From positions 1-36,094 of the forward strand of contig CAJWMA010000003.1 in NCBI GenBank assembly GCA_913042995.1: 36,094 nt of DNA. Reading direction: 5' to 3'. Shown piece after piece: positions 13,337 to 32,013 of the stretch. The DNA comes from an uncultured bacterium (GTDB lineage: Bacteria; Planctomycetota; UBA8108). Below the pieces are notes generated by a model, which was not told where the DNA came from, made no database searches, and saw only the letters and a program-made list of their open reading frames with translations. Within the stretch, counting starts at the first letter, position 1, and each line of letters starts with the position of its first letter. The translations under genes were made by a program, and so were the position numbers.

Positions 13337-13414
13337 GGTGAGCGTAGCTCAGGTGGCTAGAGCGCTTGGTTGTGGTCCAGGAGGTCGGGGGTTCAAGTCC
13401 CCTCGCTCACCCCA
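13337..13414 (+). tRNA. tRNA-His (GTG)
   Basis: Encoded G-1; acceptor stem GTGAGCG/CGCTCAC; D-arm GCTC...GAGC; anticodon arm CTTGG-TTGTGGT-CCAGG (GTG at 13372-13374); T-arm GGGGG-TTCAAGT-CCCCT; C73 discriminator and encoded CCA. Confidence 0.97.
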
Positions 13415-22007: not shown

Positions 22008-22787
<780 letters not shown>

Positions 22788-22910
22788 GGGTCTTTCCTGG
22801 AAAAAAGGGTGAAATTCGAGGCAAATATATTCGGTCGTTCGAAGAAACGGCCTGAGCGTGCGTCAGGGCCGGAATTGTGATAGATTTGAACTGGCTGGGC
22901 AAGATTTTCT

Positions 22911-22940
22911 TTGCCGATGGGCTCATCTGAGGGCTATATT
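22911..22940 (+). promoter_or_regulatory. Putative promoter of the arg leader/operon
   Basis: TTGCCG (22911-22916), 18 bp, TATATT (22935-22940), about 80 bp upstream of the leader ATG. Confidence 0.4.
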
Positions 22941-23021
22941 CGGCAGTTAAGCGTTGTCGTGCGGCAACGGTGCCAGTCACGGCTAAAACCCGGTTGAATA
23001 GCATATTTGGGGTTCGCAAAG

Positions 23022-23114
23022 ATGAATACTCTTCGTTCTAGACCTAGATCAACCCGCAGACGCTCCAGAGCGTCCTGCGCCCGTTGTCGGCTGGCTCGAA
23101 GATCCCGCATCTGA
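23022..23114 (+). CDS. Arginine-rich leader peptide (30 aa) of the arg operon
   Basis: ATG...TGA reads MNTLRSRPRSTRRRSRASCARCRLARRSRI, with 12 of 30 residues Arg (AGA x5, CGC x3, CGT x2, CGG, CGA). It lies directly upstream of an antiterminator/terminator pair and argB. It is below the ORF-track size cutoff. Confidence 0.8.
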   Translation: MNTLRSRPRSTRRRSRASCARCRLARRSRI

Positions 23115-23188
23115 GAAAACGCCAGGGGGCCGAGAGGAATTCCCGGACCCCGGCGAAGCGGAAACAACCAGATCTTTGAAGGCCAGCC
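23089..23188 (+). promoter_or_regulatory. Antiterminator helix of the arg attenuator
   Basis: GGCTGGCTCGAAGATC (23089-23104) pairs with GATCTTTGAAGGCCAGCC (23171-23188): 16 bp with one G-U and a 2-nt bulge. It encloses a GC-rich hairpin at 23120-23155 and overlaps the 5' arm of the terminator. Confidence 0.75.
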
Positions 23189-23223
23189 CACTCCGGAATC
23201 AGTCACTGGAGTCGGGTTTTTTT
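23185..23223 (+). terminator. Intrinsic (attenuator) terminator upstream of argB
   Basis: AGCCC-ACTCCGG / 9-nt loop / CTGGAGT-C-GGG followed by T7 (23217-23223) and CGTTT. It ends 46 bp before the argB GTG, and no plus-strand gene other than the leader precedes it. Confidence 0.85.
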
Positions 23224-23269
23224 CGTTTCACGCCCCCATTTACCAGCTAATACCAGGATTTAAAGTCTC

Positions 23270-24181
23270 GTGGAAAACATAGAAGTACTCAAACACGCGC
23301 TCCCCTACATCAGGCAGTACCGCGATTCGACCTTTATCATCAAGGTCGGCGGCGAGCTGTTGCAGGCCGATGGTTTTCTTGATCGTCTCAGCCACGATGT
23401 CGCCCTGCTCTACCAGCTGAATATTCGCGTGGTCATTATCCACGGCGGCGGTCCCCAGCTCTCTGAGATGGCGGAGAAGATCGGGATTGAGAGCGTCAAG
23501 GTCAACGGGCGCAGGATCACCGACGACCGCATGATCGAGGTGGCCAATATGGTCTTCAGCGGCGCCTCCACCGACATCCTGGGGGCTCTGCGCAGTCACG
23601 GGACGCCCGCGGTCGGTCTCTCCGGAGTCGATGGCGACCTGGTCCAGGCGACGAGGCGGCCGCCCGTGAAGCTGGTTGACAGGGAGACGGGAGAGGAGAA
23701 GGAGGTCGACTTCCAGAACGTCGGCGACATCGATGTGGTGGATTCCAAGGTTCTGAATGTCCTTCTCGATAATCGGTTTGTTCCCGTGGTCGCGCCGCTG
23801 GGAGCCGATAGCGCCGGCAACGTGCTCAACATCAACGCCGACACCATCGCCTCCATGGTCTCCGCGGCCATGCCAGCCGAGAAGCTCTTCCTGCTGACGA
23901 ATGTGGGTGGAGTTCTCGAAGATATAGATGATCCTTCGAGCCGTATCAGCTATCTCACAGAGTCAAGCGCCGAGAGCCTGCTCGCCGACGGGGGCGTCTC
24001 GGGCGGCATGATGCCGAAGCTGCAGTCGGCTGTCGACGCCGTGCGCGCGGGAGTGAAGCGGGCGCATATTATTGATGGCCTGGCGGATAACTCGCTCCTC
24101 TTCGAGGTCTTCACCAAGAAGGGGACCGGCACGATGGTCATCAGCGATAGCGCCGAGTCCGAATACCTGGAGCAGGGATGA
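23270..24181 (+). CDS. argB: N-acetylglutamate kinase
   Basis: ALPYI, IIKVGG, HGGGPQ, GRRITD, GLSGVDG, NINADTIA, GGMMPKL, LLFEVFTKKGTGT. Confidence 0.95.
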   Translation: MENIEVLKHALPYIRQYRDSTFIIKVGGELLQADGFLDRLSHDVALLYQLNIRVVIIHGGGPQLSEMAEKIGIESVKVNGRRITDDRMIEVANMVFSGASTDILGALRSHGTPAVGLSGVDGDLVQATRRPPVKLVDRETGEEKEVDFQNVGDIDVVDSKVLNVLLDNRFVPVVAPLGADSAGNVLNINADTIASMVSAAMPAEKLFLLTNVGGVLEDIDDPSSRISYLTESSAESLLADGGVSGGMMPKLQSAVDAVRAGVKRAHIIDGLADNSLLFEVFTKKGTGTMVISDSAESEYLEQG

Positions 24182-25545
24182 TGCGAAGCGGACGATTCGA
24201 AAAAGGCATGGCCGACAATATGCGGAGCCTCAACGCCTCCATCAGCTTCGATAAGCGGTTCTACCGCGAGGATATCGAGGCCAGCAAGGCCTGGGCGCGC
24301 GGTCTGTCGGGGCTTGGCTTTCTCTCCGAGGATGAGCTGGGCCAGATCTGCTCAGGGCTGGACCAGGTCGCCGGCGAGATCGAGTCGGGAAGCTTCACCT
24401 TCAGTGAAGAGCTTGAGGACATCCACATGAACGTCGAGGCCCGGTTGAGCGAGCTCATCGGGGAGGCCGGGGCGAAGCTGCATACCGGCAGGAGCCGCAA
24501 TGACCAGGTGGCGACGGACTTCCGTCTCTATGTGAAGCGAGCCGCTGAAGAAGCAGCCGATGCCATCGGGGCACTGATGAAGGCGGTCGTCGAGAGCGCT
24601 GAGGCGTGCCAGGATGTCGTTATTCCCGCCTACACTCACCTGCAGCGCGCCCAGCCGGTGCTCTTTTCCCATCACCTGCTGGCCTATGTAGAGATGCTCG
24701 AGCGCGACAGGCGCCGGTTCCTCTGGGCCGCGGAGCAGGCCGACTCCTGCCCACTGGGCTCGGGAGCCTGTGTCGGTAACCAGTTTGGCATCGACAGGGA
24801 GAAGCTGCAGGAGGATCTGGGCTTCAGCTCGTTGACCTCTAATTCGCTCGATGGAGTGAGCGACCGGGATTTTGCCTGCGATTTTCTCTACGCCGCCTCC
24901 ATGCTGATGGTTCACCTCTCGCGTTTCAGCGAGGACATCATCCTCTGGATGACCAGCGAATTCGGCTTCGTGCGCCTGGATGATTCGGTTACCTCCGGCA
25001 GCTCGATGCTTCCACAGAAGAAGAACCCCGATGCCTGCGAGCTGGCCCGCGGTAAGACTGGCCGGGTTGTGGGTCATCTCATCGGGCTGCTGACCTGCCT
25101 GAAGGGATTGCCGCTGTCCTACAATAAGGATCTGCAGGAGGACAAGGAGGGGGTCTTTGATACTCATGATACCCTGCTTGGCATTCTTGGGGTGTTTACG
25201 ACGATGGTCGAGACCATGCAGGTTGACCGGGAGCGTACAGCCGGAAGCCTCGAGGGCGGGTATCTCGAGGCGCTTGGAGTCGCGGACTACCTGACCCGAA
25301 AGGGAATGCCCTTTCGGGAGGCCCATGGCCTTGCAGGGAGCTGTGTACGGAGAGCCGAGGAGCTGGGGGTTTCGCTTCCTTCTCTCGACCTCGAGGAGTA
25401 CCGCTCCATCCACGAGGCCTTCGAGGAGGATCTCTTCGAGGCGATCTCGGTCGAGGGCTCGCTCGCCGACAAGGATGTGCCCGGGGGTACCGCCCCGAGC
25501 CAGGTCGCCGCGCAGCTCGAGCGCTGGAGGGAGGCGCTCAAATGA
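24178..25545 (+). CDS. argH: Argininosuccinate lyase
   Basis: [58 protein letters not shown]. Confidence 0.97.
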
Positions 25546-25644
25546 TCATGGGCCAGGTAAAGAAACAGAACCAGGAGACCGGCGCGGTTGCCGGTCGGAT
25601 TAACGCGCTCCAGGCGCGATTCCAGAAGGACCACGGATAACCAA

Positions 25645-26865
25645 ATGAACCAGGCCAGGAAAATCGTTCTAGCTTATTCCGGAGGACTTGACACCTCCTA
25701 TTGCATTCCCTACCTGCTCGAGCAGAAGGGCTTTGAGGTCGTGACCGTCACGGTTGACACCGGTGGATTCGATGCCGCCGAGCTCGCCGAGATCGAGGAA
25801 CGCTCGAGCTCCCTGGGAGCCATCGAGCACTACACCATCGACGCTCGCCAGGAGGTCTTCGACCGCTGGGTGAGCTACCTGGTGAAGGGCAATGTGCTCC
25901 GCGGCCAGGTCTATCCACTGGCGGTGGCGGCCGAACGCGTGGTGCAGGCCGAGGTCATCGCCCGCAAGGTGAAGGAGACGGGAGCGGATGCCGTCGCGCA
26001 TGGCTCCACGGGAGCCGGCAATGACCAGGTTCGCTTCGATACCGCCTTTCATGTGCTGATTCCGGGAATCGAGATTGTCACTCCCACCAGGGATGAGAAA
26101 CTCAGCAGGGAGGAGGAGTACGACTTCCTGAAGGAGCGGGGCGTCGATATTGACCCGAGCGTTCGCGAATACTCGATCAATTCAGGGCTCTGGGGCTCGA
26201 CGATCGGCGGTGGTGTGACACACGATTCCGGCAGCGAGATTCCGCGTGATGTCTTTGAGCAGGCGGTGGCTACCGATGAGGTGGAAGGTGGCGAGCTGCT
26301 CGAGATCGGCTTCGAGAAGGGAGTACCGGTCGCGCTTGGCGGTGAGGCGCTCAATGGCGTCGACCTGGTAAATAAGCTGGGTGAGCTCTGCCGGGGCTAC
26401 AGGGTCGGACTCGGAGTTCATATCGGGGATACGGTCCTTGGCATCAAGGGGCGGATCGCGTTCGAGGCCGGGGCGGCGATAGTGCTCATCCACGCGCACC
26501 GTGAGCTCGAGAAGATAACCCTGACAGACTGGCAGCGTTTCTGGAAGGACCACATGGCCTCCTTCTATGGAAAGCTGCTGCATGAGGGGCAGGCCTTCGA
26601 GCCCGTGCTCAGGGACATAGAGGCCATGATCGATTCTTCCCAGGAGCGCGTGACTGGAACGGCCGGGGTGCGCTTCGGCCCCGGGACCTTCAGCGTTGTC
26701 ACGACCGCGAGCCCCTGCACCATGGCGGGCGCGGAGGCCGGCGTCTACGGTGAGATGCCCAAGCTCTGGGAAGGCAACGACGTTCGGGGATATTCGACGA
26801 TTTCAGCGATTCCTTCACGGCTCTACAGGAGCGCCGGGGAGAATGACCAGGCGAAGGACGAGTGA
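25645..26865 (+). CDS. argG: Argininosuccinate synthase
   Basis: IVLAYSGGLDTS, YPL, HGSTGAGNDQVRF, GIKGRIAFEA. ATG 25645 is preferred to the track start 25588. Confidence 0.96.
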   Translation: MNQARKIVLAYSGGLDTSYCIPYLLEQKGFEVVTVTVDTGGFDAAELAEIEERSSSLGAIEHYTIDARQEVFDRWVSYLVKGNVLRGQVYPLAVAAERVVQAEVIARKVKETGADAVAHGSTGAGNDQVRFDTAFHVLIPGIEIVTPTRDEKLSREEEYDFLKERGVDIDPSVREYSINSGLWGSTIGGGVTHDSGSEIPRDVFEQAVATDEVEGGELLEIGFEKGVPVALGGEALNGVDLVNKLGELCRGYRVGLGVHIGDTVLGIKGRIAFEAGAAIVLIHAHRELEKITLTDWQRFWKDHMASFYGKLLHEGQAFEPVLRDIEAMIDSSQERVTGTAGVRFGPGTFSVVTTASPCTMAGAEAGVYGEMPKLWEGNDVRGYSTISAIPSRLYRSAGENDQAKDE

Positions 26866-26883
26866 AGCTTCAGAGAGGGTGAG

Positions 26884-27930
26884 ATGACCAATTCGGCAAA
26901 CGACCAGCTGAGGGTGGGTGTTTTCGGGGGCTCCGGTTATATCGGCGCCGAGCTGCTGCGCTATCTCAGCGCTCATCCCGCCGTGTCTCTTTCCTGGGTG
27001 ACCGCGCATTCCAACGTCGGGCAGGAGGTGGGCGCTGTCCTGCCGAATCTCAAGGCCGCGGTGCCCGGAGCCTTCATCTCCCAGGCGGAGGGGGAAGAGA
27101 GGGTCTCCGAGGTCGATGTCGCCTTCGCGGCCCTTCCTCACAACGAGTCTCAGAACCTGGTTCCGAGGCTTGCCGAGGCCAGTCCTGAGATACGTTTTAT
27201 CGACATGGCCGGCGACTTCCGGACCAATGACGCCCAGGGCTATGAGAAATACTACGGCTGCGAGCATGGCGCCGCTGACTGGCTGCCGCGTTTTACCTAC
27301 GGCTTCACCGAGTTCCAGCGCGACAAGGTGCGTGAGGCCCGCCTGGTGGCGAATCCGGGTTGTTTCGCCACCGGCATGCTGCTCGCCCTGGCGCCGCTGG
27401 CCGCCGCCGGGCGGCTCTCGGGAGATGTCTGCCTCCTGGGCCTGACGGGGTCCTCGGGTTCCGGAAACAAGCCGAGCTCGACAACGCATCATCCCGAGCG
27501 TTTCAGCAATGTACGCTCCTACAAGCCGCTGGCTCACCAGCACATGCTGGAGGTCGAGGCGTTTCTCGGTGGGCTGGGCGAATCCGACTTCAGCCTGCAG
27601 TTTGTGCCCCAGTCGGGTCCCTTCGTAAGAGGCATCTTCACGACCATCTTTACCCCGGGAGTGGGAGCTGACGATCTTCACGCGATCTATGCCGACACCT
27701 ACGGCGGGGAGAGCCTTGTGGAGGTGATGGAGGGCTCTCCCGATCTTCGCTGGGTCCAGGGCTCACCGCGGTCCTGGGTAGGAGTCGGCGGCGAGGGAGA
27801 TAATGGCGTGGTGTTTACCGTGATCGACAACCTCGGCAAGGGAGCCGCTAGCCAGGGTGTGCAGAACATGAACCTGATGTGCGGCCTGGATGAGACCGAG
27901 GGTCTTCGCGCGCCGGGTGGATTTGTTTGA
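26884..27930 (+). CDS. argC: N-acetyl-gamma-glutamyl-phosphate reductase
   Basis: GGSGYIGAELLR, ALPH, DMAGDFR, ANPGCFAT (catalytic Cys), HQH, RGI, DNLGKGAASQGVQNMN. Confidence 0.95.
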   Translation: MTNSANDQLRVGVFGGSGYIGAELLRYLSAHPAVSLSWVTAHSNVGQEVGAVLPNLKAAVPGAFISQAEGEERVSEVDVAFAALPHNESQNLVPRLAEASPEIRFIDMAGDFRTNDAQGYEKYYGCEHGAADWLPRFTYGFTEFQRDKVREARLVANPGCFATGMLLALAPLAAAGRLSGDVCLLGLTGSSGSGNKPSSTTHHPERFSNVRSYKPLAHQHMLEVEAFLGGLGESDFSLQFVPQSGPFVRGIFTTIFTPGVGADDLHAIYADTYGGESLVEVMEGSPDLRWVQGSPRSWVGVGGEGDNGVVFTVIDNLGKGAASQGVQNMNLMCGLDETEGLRAPGGFV

Positions 27931-27976
27931 CGGCCGCGGACATGCCCGGTTGGAAGCAACAGGAGAATCAAGCAGG

Positions 27977-29143
27977 ATGAATTCAAAAGAAACCGAGGAT
28001 CGCTACATCCTTCCGACCTACAACAATATTCGTTTTCCCCTGAGCTTCGTCCGAGCTGAAGGAAGCTATGTTGAAGATGATTCGGGCGGCCGCTACCTCG
28101 ATCTCTATGGAGGGCACGCCGTCTGCGTGCTGGGTCACTGCCATCCGAAGTGGGTTGAGGCGATCGCGGAGCAGGCGGGTACTTTCGATTTCTATTCGAA
28201 CCTCTGTTATTGCCCTGTTCGGGCGGAGGCCGCCAAGCTCATGGTCGAGCGGTGCTATTCCATGCACCAGGCGTTCTTCTGCAATTCCGGAGCCGAGGCG
28301 AATGAGACCGCCCTGAAGATCGCCCGCAAGGCGACCGGTAGAGAATACGTTGTTTCCATGGAGGAGGACTTCCATGGCCGGACGATCGGCGCGCTCAGCG
28401 TGACGGGCTTCGAGAAGTCGCGCGCCCTCTTCCCACAGAACATCTCCCGGTGGACGCGTTTTCTTCGTCTTGGCGACCTGGAGGCTTTTGATTCCCTTGA
28501 TCCGGAAGAGATCGCGGGCGTCATCCTCGAGCCTCTCCAGAGCGTCGTCGGCGTCAAGATGGCCGAGCCGGAGTACTACCGGGGGCTGCGGGACTGGTGT
28601 GATCGTACCGGCGCCGTGCTGATCTTCGACGAAGTGCAGACCGGAAACGGCCGAACCGGAAAATGGTTTGTCGGTGAGCACTGGGGGGTAGAACCGGACC
28701 TCGTGACCACGGCCAAGGGTCTGGGCGGGGGCTATCCTGTCGGCGCCGTTCTCGCGAATGAGAAGATCTCGGCCACGGTGGAAGCCGGAGACCAGGCCAC
28801 CACCTTCGGGGGAGGCCCGATGGCGGCCGCGGCGGTGGCCGCGACCTATCGCATCATCGAGGAGGAGGGTCTCGTCGAGCAGGTGGCACGGCTGTCCAGC
28901 GGCGTTATCGAGCGCCTCGGAGGATATGTCGGCCGGGGAATCGAGGAGGTTCGGGGTCTTGGCTATCTTCTCGGCGTGCGTTGCGAGAAGCCGGCGAAGG
29001 AGATCCAGGCGGCTCTTCTCGATCGCGGCATCCTGGTTGGTACCTCCGGAGATCCCCAGACCTTCAGGCTCCTGCCTCCACTGACGGTAAGCGAGGAGGA
29101 GTGGGGAGTCTTCTTCGCGGCGCTGGATGATATCTTCGCCTGA
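27977..29143 (+). CDS. argD: Acetylornithine aminotransferase (class III PLP)
   Basis: YLDLYGG, NSGAEANETALK, FHGRT, LIFDEVQTG.GRTG, AKGLGGG, TTFGG, RLLPPL, plus operon context. ATG 27977 follows AGGAG. Confidence 0.92.
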   Translation: MNSKETEDRYILPTYNNIRFPLSFVRAEGSYVEDDSGGRYLDLYGGHAVCVLGHCHPKWVEAIAEQAGTFDFYSNLCYCPVRAEAAKLMVERCYSMHQAFFCNSGAEANETALKIARKATGREYVVSMEEDFHGRTIGALSVTGFEKSRALFPQNISRWTRFLRLGDLEAFDSLDPEEIAGVILEPLQSVVGVKMAEPEYYRGLRDWCDRTGAVLIFDEVQTGNGRTGKWFVGEHWGVEPDLVTTAKGLGGGYPVGAVLANEKISATVEAGDQATTFGGGPMAAAAVAATYRIIEEEGLVEQVARLSSGVIERLGGYVGRGIEEVRGLGYLLGVRCEKPAKEIQAALLDRGILVGTSGDPQTFRLLPPLTVSEEEWGVFFAALDDIFA

Positions 29144-29160
29144 GCCGATTTTCGCGCGCC

Positions 29161-29166
29161 TATAAT
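29161..29166 (+). promoter_or_regulatory. Perfect -10 hexamer upstream of argF'; possible internal promoter
   Basis: TATAAT in the 87-bp argD-argF' gap; no convincing -35. Confidence 0.35.
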
Positions 29167-29230
29167 GGCTTGCACATCCCCGGCTAAAGTGGGACATTCA
29201 ACGCCTTCAAAATACTGGTGGAGTCGTTAG

Positions 29231-30223
29231 ATGCGGCATTTCTACAGCTTGAACGAGTTCTCCTCTGAACAGATAGGGGAGTTTGTTAACAGGGCTCTCG
29301 CCTTCAAGGAGAACCCCTATTCGGAGGTTCTTGACCATCGCCAGATAGCCCTCCTCTTTCTGAACCAGTCCCTGCGTACTCGCTGTTCCTTCGAGGTAGC
29401 GACGAGGGAGCTGGGAGGAGATGTAAGCACTCTCGATGCCGAGACGCTCTTCGCCCTGGAGACCGAGTTCGGCAAACGCATGGACGGCGCCTCAGCCGAG
29501 CATGTGAAGGAGGCCATCGGCGTCTTCTCGCGTTACTTCTCGGCCCTGGGCCTGCGCTCCTTCGCGCGCGGCGAGGACCAGCAGGAGGATCTCCTGGACA
29601 AGACCTTTACCACGTTTCTCGAGCACGCGAAGATCCCGGTCTTCAATATGGAGTCGGCACTGTACCACCCCTGCCAGGCGCTCGCCGATCTCGTGACCAT
29701 CAAGGAGCTCTTTCAGGATTTCCAGGGACGCAAGGTCACCATTACCTGGGCGAACCATCCGCGCGCCCTTCCGATGGCTGTTGCCAACTCGGCCCTGCTG
29801 GCCATGACGAAGATGGGGATGCACGTCACCCTCGCTCATCCGGAGAAATTCGAGCTGCAGGAGGGAATCATGAATATGGCTGGCGACTTTGCCGGCGAAT
29901 CAGGCGGCAGTGTAGAGGTTGTCCATGATCGTCTCGAGGCGGCCGCCGATGCCGATGTGATCTATGCCAAGTCCTGGGGATCCCTGCTGCGTTACGATGA
30001 CCCTGCCGCTGAGCAGGATCTTCGCGACAGCCTGAAGGATTGGGTGGTGGACAGCGAGATGATGAGCCGTACGCGCAGAGCCTATTTCATGCATTGCCTG
30101 CCGGTGCGCAGGAATGTCGTGGTCAACGATGACGTTATCGACAGCAACCGGTCCGTTGTTCTGCAGGAGGCGGAGAACCGTCTCCATGCCCAGAAGGCGA
30201 TTCTTGAATGGATTTTTTCCTGA
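29231..30223 (+). CDS. argF': N-acyl (succinyl/acetyl)-ornithine carbamoyltransferase (ArgF', SOTCase/AOTCase type)
   Basis: NQSLRT in place of the STRT of canonical OTC, an extended 80s loop (ETEFGKRMDGASAEH), HPCQALAD, a proline-rich loop TWANHPRALPMAVANS, KSW, and HCLPVRRN. Confidence 0.9.
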   Translation: MRHFYSLNEFSSEQIGEFVNRALAFKENPYSEVLDHRQIALLFLNQSLRTRCSFEVATRELGGDVSTLDAETLFALETEFGKRMDGASAEHVKEAIGVFSRYFSALGLRSFARGEDQQEDLLDKTFTTFLEHAKIPVFNMESALYHPCQALADLVTIKELFQDFQGRKVTITWANHPRALPMAVANSALLAMTKMGMHVTLAHPEKFELQEGIMNMAGDFAGESGGSVEVVHDRLEAAADADVIYAKSWGSLLRYDDPAAEQDLRDSLKDWVVDSEMMSRTRRAYFMHCLPVRRNVVVNDDVIDSNRSVVLQEAENRLHAQKAILEWIFS

Positions 30224-32013
30224 GCGACTCACGCCGCGTCTCCAGCCCCGCCTCGCGGCGGCCGGCAAGCCTTCCGCTTGTCGGGTGCTTGTTGGCCGCG
30301 TTGATCCTGGGGCAGGGCCTCTGGTCCGGGCGGACCCTGGCGGGGCCCCTCGAGGCCGGAATCCCGCCGGAGTCCGTCCTCTTCCTGCACTGGCAGAACG
30401 CGAAAGATTCGGGCTTCGCCTCCACCTATCTCGGTCATTTGCAGGAGAAGATCGCGAGCTCAGGGTTCCTTGACACGTTTTTCCGCCACCTGGGAGAAAC
30501 GTTTCCTCCCGCTTCGAGAAAGGCCTTCACATCTCACCTCAAGCGCTGGCGAGGCATCGTTTCCAACCTGCCGTGGTGGCACCTCGCCTCATCCGAGGTG
30601 GCGATCGGCGGACGGGTGGGAGCCCGGGGAACCTTTGAGTTTATTCTCCTCTTTCGTAGAGAGAAAGAGAAGATCGCCGCGGAGCTGTTGGGGTTGCGGG
30701 ACCTGCTCTACGCCTATTCCAGCCTGGGTGAAGAATATGAACTCGAGGTCGGTATTCGAAACGGCGCGGCGACCACGGTTCTTCAGAATGGTCTCGACCT
30801 GCTTGACCAGATAGCGGTTAGCGCCCAGGGGGACGTGATCGGGATTTCGACCTCAGCCGCCCTTCTTCGCCGAAGCTTTCAGCTGCTCTCCGGCGAGACT
30901 CTCTCTCCGGGCTTTACCCGGACACCCGGCTACGAGCAATTGCAGAGTAAGATGAAGAAGCGCATTGGCAGGAAACCTCCCGCCGGGAAGGAGACCGCGC
31001 GTTTCGAGTTTATTTTTCAACCTCGCGGAGTTCTGAAGGATGTGGTGATCCTTGACGTGATTGAGGAGTACCACTATCTCGCGAGCTTTACGCCCGCTGG
31101 CGCGGAATCGAGCTCGCGTACTGTCCTCAGCGAGGCCATCGGCAACCCGCTGATAAAGGCGGTTGCCGGTCAGCCCTCGGTTGAGGGACTCGCCGCCGGA
31201 ATCTCAGCTGACGCGGTCTCCTACAGCGCCACCTCGGGGACGGATCCGGCCGGAGTCTATGAGTTCTGCATGGAGCTGCTTGTCAACATTACAGGGAATG
31301 CGGAATCAGCCGAGAGGTTTGAGCGTGAGCAGGCCAGGCTTGGTATTCGCCTGCGGCGCGAGATTCTCCAGAGCCTTACCGGGCGGCGGGTGACCGCGGT
31401 CTTTCCTCCCTCGCCGGGCGCTCGACCTTCACGCGCGTTTCTTCTCGAGGTCAAGGATGCTGACAGGGCCTCCAGCGCGATCGCTGGAGCTGTCGAGGCT
31501 CTTGCCGGGCCGCTGAGGGAGTGGAACCTGGAGCTTGGCAGCAAGACTGAAGAGGGAGCCAGGGAAGGCTTTCATGTTTTCAGCTCGGGCTTGCTGGGAT
31601 TCGATATCGCCTTTGGAGTGCGCGGGAACTTCCTGGTCCTGGCCACATCGAGAGAGGCTTTCAGGAAGGTTGCCGCCACCCTCGAGGGCAAGTCAGCCTC
31701 CCTGGCTGATGCCGGGGGTCTCAAATGGCTGCCGAAATCGGATCTTGCGGTCGACAGCTTCTACAAGGGCGTGGGCTCGGGGCTCTCCGACCCCGGCGAC
31801 TGGCTGCTGAAGATCGGCGGCTTGCTGGGTACTCTGCTTCCGGATCCCAGGGAGCCGGCTATTTTAAAGCCGTTCCTGATCTCCCTGCCCCGCCTGGAGG
31901 GCGCGCTGCGTTCCCTGGATGTCTTCAGCGACAGCTCTGGGTATTCTCTGCGTGATGGGCGTGTTTTTTTCAGCACAGCCTCCAGCAAATTGCGCCCTGT
32001 CGCCGGATTTTAA
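30208..32013 (+). CDS. Hypothetical exported protein (601 aa)
   Basis: Long ORF overlapping the argF' stop, with a signal-peptide-like N-terminus. No motif recognised with confidence. Confidence 0.7.
   Translation: MDFFLSDSRRVSSPASRRPASLPLVGCLLAALILGQGLWSGRTLAGPLEAGIPPESVLFLHWQNAKDSGFASTYLGHLQEKIASSGFLDTFFRHLGETFPPASRKAFTSHLKRWRGIVSNLPWWHLASSEVAIGGRVGARGTFEFILLFRREKEKIAAELLGLRDLLYAYSSLGEEYELEVGIRNGAATTVLQNGLDLLDQIAVSAQGDVIGISTSAALLRRSFQLLSGETLSPGFTRTPGYEQLQSKMKKRIGRKPPAGKETARFEFIFQPRGVLKDVVILDVIEEYHYLASFTPAGAESSSRTVLSEAIGNPLIKAVAGQPSVEGLAAGISADAVSYSATSGTDPAGVYEFCMELLVNITGNAESAERFEREQARLGIRLRREILQSLTGRRVTAVFPPSPGARPSRAFLLEVKDADRASSAIAGAVEALAGPLREWNLELGSKTEEGAREGFHVFSSGLLGFDIAFGVRGNFLVLATSREAFRKVAATLEGKSASLADAGGLKWLPKSDLAVDSFYKGVGSGLSDPGDWLLKIGGLLGTLLPDPREPAILKPFLISLPRLEGALRSLDVFSDSSGYSLRDGRVFFSTASSKLRPVAGF

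Follow-up and report, generated by a model that had tools for sequence, protein, structure and literature searches.

The subject of this work is the 482-nucleotide (nt) gap between fabI and argB in an uncultured marine planctomycete (GTDB lineage Bacteria; Planctomycetota; UBA8108). The DNA analysed, called the window below, is the whole stretch of 36,094 nt at positions 1 to 36,094 of the forward strand of contig CAJWMA010000003.1 (assembly GCA_913042995.1), part of a 3.9-Mb draft genome (464 contigs, 60.1% G+C, 90.9% complete). In front of argB, the first gene of an arginine (Arg) biosynthesis operon, the gap holds a short open reading frame (ORF) rich in Arg codons, a set of mutually exclusive RNA helices and an intrinsic terminator that ends 46 nt before argB. 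We consider it quite probable that these parts make up a ribosome-mediated leader-peptide transcription attenuator, which would sense charged tRNA-Arg through its Arg codons.

An earlier sequence-only reading of the same DNA had proposed such an element from four features: a 30-codon ORF with 12 Arg codons, a hairpin over its Arg run, a 16-base-pair (bp) helix, and a terminator whose 5' arm is invaded by that helix. The element is real, all four features being confirmed where they had been placed, and as far as computation goes the attenuator interpretation is supported. The same reading gave the operon as argBHGCD. Those genes are present, and the list was incomplete, as a gene for N-acetylornithine carbamoyltransferase follows argD. 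The coordinates are collected in Table 1. As the leader ORF of an attenuator should be, the ORF found here is short, has its own start and stop codons, and sits between a promoter-like site and argB; likewise, the terminator lies between the leader ORF and the first gene. Because fabI is on the opposite strand, no upstream gene could end at a plus-strand terminator in the gap.

Table 1. Features of the fabI–argB gap and of the genes beside it, in window coordinates.
Feature	Position	Strand	Basis and remarks
fabI, divergent	22008-22787	-	FabI models, best E 1.1e-105; ORF table
Promoter-like site	22911-22940	+	Promoter scan; -35 hexamer 22911-22916, 18-nt spacer, -10 hexamer 22935-22940
Leader ORF	23022-23114	+	Read from sequence; ATG 23022, 30 sense codons, TGA 23112-23114
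Region 1	23030-23053	+	Pairs with region 2 (23083-23102) in the minimum free energy (MFE) fold when ribosome-free
Putative regulatory Arg codons 5, 7, 9, 12, 13, 14, 16	23034-23069	+	Ribosome-mask folding
Hairpin spanning Arg codons 12-16, inside the region 1:2 helix	23055-23064 with 23069-23079	+	MFE fold
Region 2, antiterminator 5' strand	23089-23108	+	Covers the last leader codons, ends 4 nt 5' of the stop codon
Antiterminator core	23089-23104 with 23171-23188	+	Folding; 16 pairs, 2-nt internal loop
Antiterminator extension	23105-23108 with 23158-23161	+	4 bp
Middle hairpin, between stop codon and region 3	23120-23155	+	Folding; 13 pairs
Region 3, antiterminator 3' strand	23158-23188	+	Last four bases, 23185-23188, are the terminator stem base
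Intrinsic terminator	23185-23223	+	Folding; stem 23187-23196 with 23206-23216, one bulged C, 9-nt loop, U7 23217-23223
argB	23270-24181	+	NCBIfam match TIGR00761; start codon GTG at 23270
argH	24178-25545	+	NCBIfam match TIGR00838
argG	25588-26865	+	NCBIfam match TIGR00032
argC	26884-27930	+	NCBIfam match TIGR01850
argD	27890-29143	+	TIGR00707, 373 bits (below its 410 cut-off)
N-acetylornithine carbamoyltransferase gene	29231-30223	+	NF003384; last gene of operon 23270-30223

The codon enrichment that marks the attenuator class is found in the window leader. Twelve of its 30 codons encode Arg (codons 5, 7, 9, 12, 13, 14, 16, 21, 23, 26, 27 and 29), and the seven that fall within codons 5–16 make up a density rarely reached in dinucleotide shuffles of the leader itself (7 in 12 codons, p = 0.004). 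Five of the twelve are AGA, three CGC, two CGT, one CGG and one CGA. AGA is the rarest Arg codon in the long ORFs of the genome (6.7%) versus five of 12 in the leader (binomial p = 7e-4); four of the leader AGA codons fall among codons 5–16, and the draft genome has a single tRNA-Arg(UCU) gene. The distal five Arg codons (21, 23, 26, 27 and 29) sit in region 2, where the sequence is also fixed by two alternative pairings. Across the genome, 22 of the 754 small ORFs with at least six Arg in 12 codons have a terminator within 200 nt downstream, and among these 22 the argB leader alone precedes an arg gene. The others were rejected as candidates: the genes behind five encode a BamB-like repeat protein, MgtE and three proteins without a family assignment, and the remaining ORFs lie within long ORFs or have no gene behind them.

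Folding places the alternative helices in competition. The MFE structure of 23000-23235 (236 nt) has an energy of -89.4 kcal/mol (z = -2.63; one of 200 shuffles was equally stable) and holds the region 1:2 helix, the enclosed hairpin at 23055-23079 and the full terminator. This hairpin, also present in the genus alignment described below, had been suggested as a pause site, a role that is putative. When 23022-23223 is folded alone, the MFE structure is instead the antiterminator, which leaves the terminator without its three closing pairs; the energies of the two states are nearly equal. The helix between regions 2 and 3 excludes the terminator hairpin, whose own energy is -13.3 kcal/mol. A simple consensus terminator scan did not list this hairpin because its 9-nt loop and its bulge fall outside the rules of the scan.

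We modeled the ribosome as a mask that starts at the 5' end of the RNA and reaches 12 nt beyond the codon in the A site. When that codon is Arg codon 5, 7, 9, 12, 13, 14 or 16, the masked MFE structure is the antiterminator, and the terminator has lost each of its three closing pairs. When it is instead Arg codon 21, 23, 26, 27 or 29, or the stop codon, the closing pairs are all present, and the terminator is complete. The switch from antiterminator to terminator that the sequence-only reading had expected from constrained folding was thus seen, and it depends on the position of the ribosome; at the window, the placement of the Arg codons and of the stop codon lets ribosome position select the fold. 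The anatomy, the mutually exclusive folds and this dependence on ribosome position are computed results, as is the conservation to which we now turn.

Within the genus, we aligned 14 distinct leaders, from nine genomes and five metagenome contigs, after dropping eight identical copies, and computed identities to the window for four more distant members. For these four, identity from the ATG to the U tract is 89–90%, compared with 69–79% in the 5' untranslated region (UTR) and, in argB, 81–83% at all sites and 58–65% at third codon positions. All 16 core antiterminator pairs are kept in all 14 sequences, with three one-sided substitutions that exchange G-C and G-U pairs in one direction or the other; pairing in the 4-bp extension stands at 85.7%. 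Of the 18 pairs of the region 1:2 helix, 17 are invariant, and 96.8% of alignment cells are paired; the hairpin that this helix encloses has 10 pairs, 99.3% of cells paired and one pair changed on both sides. One of the 13 pairs of the middle hairpin is compensatory (GC 9, AU 3, GU 2); this hairpin may serve as a spacer or a timer. In the leader ORF, the Arg residue changes at none of the 12 Arg codons versus six of the 17 other sense codons (Fisher p = 0.028), although two of the Arg codons vary from AGA to AGG. Because the Arg codons and the helices stay constant while other residues vary, the leader peptide is not conserved as a protein.

For the wider comparison, argB upstream regions were taken from the 21 species genomes of the order, from public genome contigs and from metagenome contigs, and dereplicated by eye to 30 diverged lineages, with the window's genus counted once. 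Loci with argB below ~59% identity, which belong to other orders, were left out; those that we looked at have no leader. In 22 of these lineages, a homologous hairpin followed by a U tract is found no more than 170 nt from argB. The leaders are unalignable between genera. As the sequence-only reading had anticipated for related Planctomycetota, most lineages hold a short upstream ORF (uORF) with Arg codons, often as Arg-x-Arg with AGA second. Measured against shuffles, the Arg density of the best upstream ORF is below 0.05 in five of the 22 lineages and below 0.1 in nine (Fisher combined p = 1.2e-4, or 1.0e-3 without the window's locus).

Two further tests, carried out blind like the one on Arg density, bear on the RNA. 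In the first, the 5' arm of the terminator, extended by 14 nt, was set against the 200-nt leader, and the energy of the best duplex was compared with that of shuffles; eight of the 22 lineages fall below 0.05 (Fisher combined p = 2.4e-7, or 1.2e-6 without the window's locus). In the second, we took the upstream ORF with the highest Arg density and asked whether the best duplex partner ends between -20 and +15 nt from the stop codon of that ORF. It does so in 18 of 22 lineages versus 3.3 by shuffles, and none of 200,000 simulations reached 18; that is, the stop codon lies on the antiterminator strand. In the lineage helices that we inspected, an invariant CCCAC of the terminator arm pairs with a G-rich block near the stop codon, and the paired bases 5' of CCCAC differ between lineages with complementarity retained.

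Two groups of lineages depart from this pattern. In L014, L017, L183 and L188, the conserved hairpin almost adjoins the -10 box, which leaves no room for a uORF. In one family (L019, L021, L134, L135 and L136/L137), very Arg-rich short uORFs precede argB, with no canonical terminator within 170 nt; the uORF peptides of L019 and L136 share a similar core. The Arg-rich uORFs of this family suggest the same sensor coupled to another output.

From these computations we infer translation of the uORF, ribosome stalling, termination and a response to arginine, which would be connected as follows. Transcription would begin at the promoter-like site, with a predicted start near 22947, and the leader ORF would be translated behind the advancing RNA polymerase. 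A shortage of charged tRNA-Arg would make the ribosome stall at Arg codons 5–16, four of which are the rare AGA; there it would occupy region 1 and leave region 2 free. Region 2 could then pair with region 3, removing the base of the terminator stem, and polymerase would continue through argB-argH-argG-argC-argD and the carbamoyltransferase gene. With ample arginine, the ribosome would reach the stop codon and cover region 2, allowing the terminator to form; if there is no translation, region 1 would pair with region 2, and the terminator would again form. In both of these cases, the transcript would be expected to end at ~23223.

Several observations weigh against this attenuator interpretation. 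First, at the locus itself, the Shine-Dalgarno-like stretch 5' of the leader ATG is weak by eye. Arg-richness on its own is weak evidence for an attenuator, and 165 of the 25,978 small ATG ORFs genome-wide have at least seven Arg in 12 codons, next to the 754 with at least six. Second, in the order, the Arg density is below 0.05 at just the five loci counted above, several lineage uORFs hold merely 3–4 Arg codons, and the hairpin directly follows the promoter, with no uORF, in L014, L017, L183 and L188. L014 is, moreover, doubtful among the 18 lineages of the position test, as the ORF counted there precedes the promoter. Eight of the 30 lineages have no terminator at the thresholds used, and some of these have Arg-rich uORFs. 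Third, full-length MFE folds switch in 10 of the 22 lineages, and when the transcript is cut before the 3' arm of the terminator, nine of 22 pass our thresholds. Among the first ten loci, picked by eye, the switch is seen in L001, L006, L009, L012 and L013, is partial in L011 and L015, and is not seen in L010, L016 and L042. Fourth, the lineages are related, and the combined p values therefore overstate their independence. Finally, in a crude genome scan, none of 23 other 5'-leader terminators has an amino-acid-biased uORF before a biosynthesis gene; three possible-looking leader candidates were rejected, and one was an artefact opposite apt. With no other attenuator found, attenuation elsewhere in this organism cannot be claimed.

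Two lines of evidence on codon usage were discounted or set aside in the course of this weighing. AGA makes up 32 of 157 Arg codons in the lineage uORFs versus 3 of 452 in argB coding usage, but it is just 1.7-fold enriched over flanking non-coding triplets (13%, p = 0.025), and we dropped AGA enrichment as strong evidence because it is modest against this non-coding background. The comparison of in-frame with off-frame Arg counts (Wilcoxon) was also dropped, as it is biased by the choice of the ORFs for their Arg content.

Public metatranscriptomes add little. Sixteen RNA-labelled runs contain part of the stretch, contigs from four runs cover the leader, and in two runs (X2 and X3) one contig bridges the terminator into argB. 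These contigs are weak support for an attenuator because a contig tells neither the strand nor the ends of an RNA and may derive from carried-over DNA; they show only that the region occurs in RNA libraries. We rejected as an RNA 3' end the X1 contig end at 23211, with the next contig starting at 23218, which may be an assembly break at a variable T run. Other contigs begin 5' of the predicted start site and may come from the divergent fabI transcript.

Three other explanations were considered. The terminator/antiterminator switch coupled to the uORF could be real but respond to something other than charged tRNA-Arg, either nascent-peptide arrest at an early Arg-x-Arg(-Pro) of the uORF, perhaps with dependence on a small molecule, or general translation speed. 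By eye, Arg-x-Arg, often followed or interrupted by Pro and with AGA second, recurs in many unalignable leaders, and several of these uORFs have just the 3–4 Arg codons mentioned above, as would suit an arrest. In masked folding, however, a stall at Arg-x-Arg frees region 2 and gives read-through, so that an arginine-induced arrest there would switch the operon on at high arginine, which is the wrong sign. Further, the Arg-x-Arg bases belong to region 1 and pair with region 2, so that RNA pairing may explain their conservation, and members of the genus differ freely in the residues that flank the Arg codons. The peptides of different lineages do resemble one another by eye at their C termini, but the G-rich block responsible lies in different frames from lineage to lineage, which makes the likeness a feature of the RNA. 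We regard an explanation of this kind as improbable.

Somewhat less probable still is that the folds are set by a trans-acting factor, such as an RNA-binding protein, a tRNA or a metabolite, with the uORF incidental. The hairpin is kept without a uORF in four lineages, the G-rich block conserved in region 2 might serve as a binding site, and Arg-rich ORFs arise easily at this G+C content, all of which fit such a factor. On the other hand, Rfam gave no match, T-box included, in 22500-23600 at E values up to 10, and the placement of the stop codon at the antiterminator strand in 18 of 22 lineages versus 3.3 expected is not predicted by a switch made of RNA only. Regions 1–4 are, in addition, the sole sequence blocks common to different genera.

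That there is no regulation at all, with a constitutively leaky terminator or a stabilising 5' structure and with the Arg-rich ORF and the alternative helix as by-products of G+C content, seems the least likely of the three, for although Arg-dense ORFs are common in the genome, the MFE switch appears in just 10 of 22 lineages and metatranscriptome contigs bridge the terminator, the leader is far better conserved than the synonymous sites of argB, the duplex and position tests both stand against shuffles, and every Arg codon is invariant in residue while neighbouring codons vary.

The attenuator interpretation can also be judged by comparison with known systems. Leader-peptide attenuation is known for the trp, his, leu, ilv, thr and phe operons; the classical leaders are trpL, hisL, leuL, thrL, ilvL/ivbL and pheL, and Rfam has the families His_leader, Leu_leader, Thr_leader and Trp_leader. 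Arginine biosynthesis is normally controlled by ArgR, and by T-boxes in some Firmicutes. SpeFL, TnaC and the fungal arginine attenuator peptide act by small-molecule-dependent arrest. In Planctomycetota, to our knowledge, almost no gene regulation has been characterised.

Like the classical attenuators, the element described here has a short leader ORF enriched in codons for the operon's own amino acid, four segments that form 1:2, 2:3 and 3:4 helices, an intrinsic terminator 5' of the first structural gene, and a stop codon positioned such that the ribosome, on terminating there, covers region 2. As in the trp and his attenuators, ribosome position selects the fold. Unlike them, it concerns arginine and has a planctomycete host, and it resembles the Rfam leader families neither in sequence nor by model: in 22500-23600, the search noted above, which covered the leader families, returned zero matches, and the element is therefore not a homologue of a described family. 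It also has a 75-nt 5' UTR, an additional hairpin separating the stop codon from region 3, and five more Arg codons inside region 2, at which stalling favours termination. Control by ArgR/AhrC with ARG boxes and control by Arg T-boxes resemble it in that arg genes are feedback-controlled by arginine supply, and T-boxes in addition sense tRNA charging and use a terminator and an antiterminator. In contrast to both, the sensor here would be the translating ribosome; no ArgR domain was found in the order, and there was no T-box match.

Closer parallels come from individual uORFs, for which we draw on excerpts of the papers cited. In the Salmonella speF leader, low-arginine pausing at the Arg codons of orf34 refolds the downstream mRNA (PMC6386406). 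This leader differs in having two consecutive Arg codons, in serving polyamine synthesis and not arginine biosynthesis, and in acting via Rho-dependent termination, sequestration of the ribosome-binding site and RNase G decay; according to the excerpt, its authors found no Rho-independent terminator (PMC6386406). In Staphylococcus aureus, rbfL likewise senses arginine limitation via rare AGA/AGG codons and scarce tRNA-Arg(UCU), but as excerpted its mechanism is occlusion of the ribosome-binding site, its target is a biofilm regulator, and it has no terminator/antiterminator pair (PMC13009471). The polycysteine short ORFs of mycobacteria are another recent case of a new amino-acid specificity for uORF attenuation outside Proteobacteria and differ in their cysteine codons and leaderless mRNAs (bioRxiv 10.1101/834739). 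Among surveys, the excerpted text of Seliverstov et al. 2005 gives attenuators for his, thr and phe, lists none for arginine, and states that the arginine genes are controlled at the RNA level through T-boxes (PMC1262725), and that of Korolev et al. 2016 counts leader genes in Planctomycetes without mention of arginine (PMC4833913).

In line with the sequence-only reading, which knew of no such switch, an Arg-codon terminator/antiterminator on an arg operon was not found in Rfam or in the full-text literature, with subscription-only surveys outside the scope of the search. What is new here is the Arg specificity and the Planctomycetota host for leader-peptide attenuation; the architecture itself is known.

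The same reading had asked whether the genome has argR. Neither ArgR domain (PF01316 or PF02863) was found in the host's own genome at its 90.9% completeness, and PF02863 was found in none of the 21 genomes of the order, nine of which are at least 90% complete. The same search matches 8 of 14 control genomes and gives PF02863 matches in 3 of 59 genomes of the class. With no ArgR protein found, and with no search for ARG boxes made, the operon was not placed in an ArgR regulon. In one of the three ArgR-positive genomes of the class (G037, contig C177, the L025/L026 region), the ArgR match lies ~6 kb from the arg cluster, and argB is preceded by another arg-type gene, not by a leader. A second Arg leader was not found in the host genome, where carA closely follows another gene and has no leader.

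The flanks of the element show further features. The promoter-like site is the sole plus-strand match in 22700-23400 (shuffle mean 0.3), and by eye the same boxes lie 5' of argB in relatives. The fabI and arg leader promoters are apparently back-to-back (22870-22945), and their two -35 boxes, which are separated by 8 bp, together make an imperfect palindrome; this block, which is kept 5' of argB throughout the order, may double as an operator. At the other end, the carbamoyltransferase gene that closes the operon points to the acetylcitrulline route, and ArgJ had no match in the genome. A 601-residue ORF without a Pfam match (30208-32013) shares 16 nt with the end of the carbamoyltransferase gene and may be a further member of the operon. 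The sole tRNA gene within the window is a tRNA-His (GUG) gene at 13338-13414.

Because the element is kept across an order in which ArgR was not found, these bacteria probably sense arginine supply by ribosome stalling. A bolder version of this idea, which we offer as speculation and think rather unlikely in full, is that the whole order swapped ArgR repression for a ribosome-sensed switch. Its minimal sensor would be CGN-NNN-AGA, partly decoded by the single-copy tRNA-Arg(UCU), with long Arg runs as elaborations, and the terminator-less family f2 would couple this sensor to another output, for example, Rho or translation.

If the attenuator interpretation is true, the segment from promoter to U tract, ~280 nt, would be a compact, testable part. 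Arginine, missing so far, would join the classical attenuation set, and leader-peptide attenuation would be shown in Planctomycetota, where it would account for the control of arginine synthesis in an order without ArgR.

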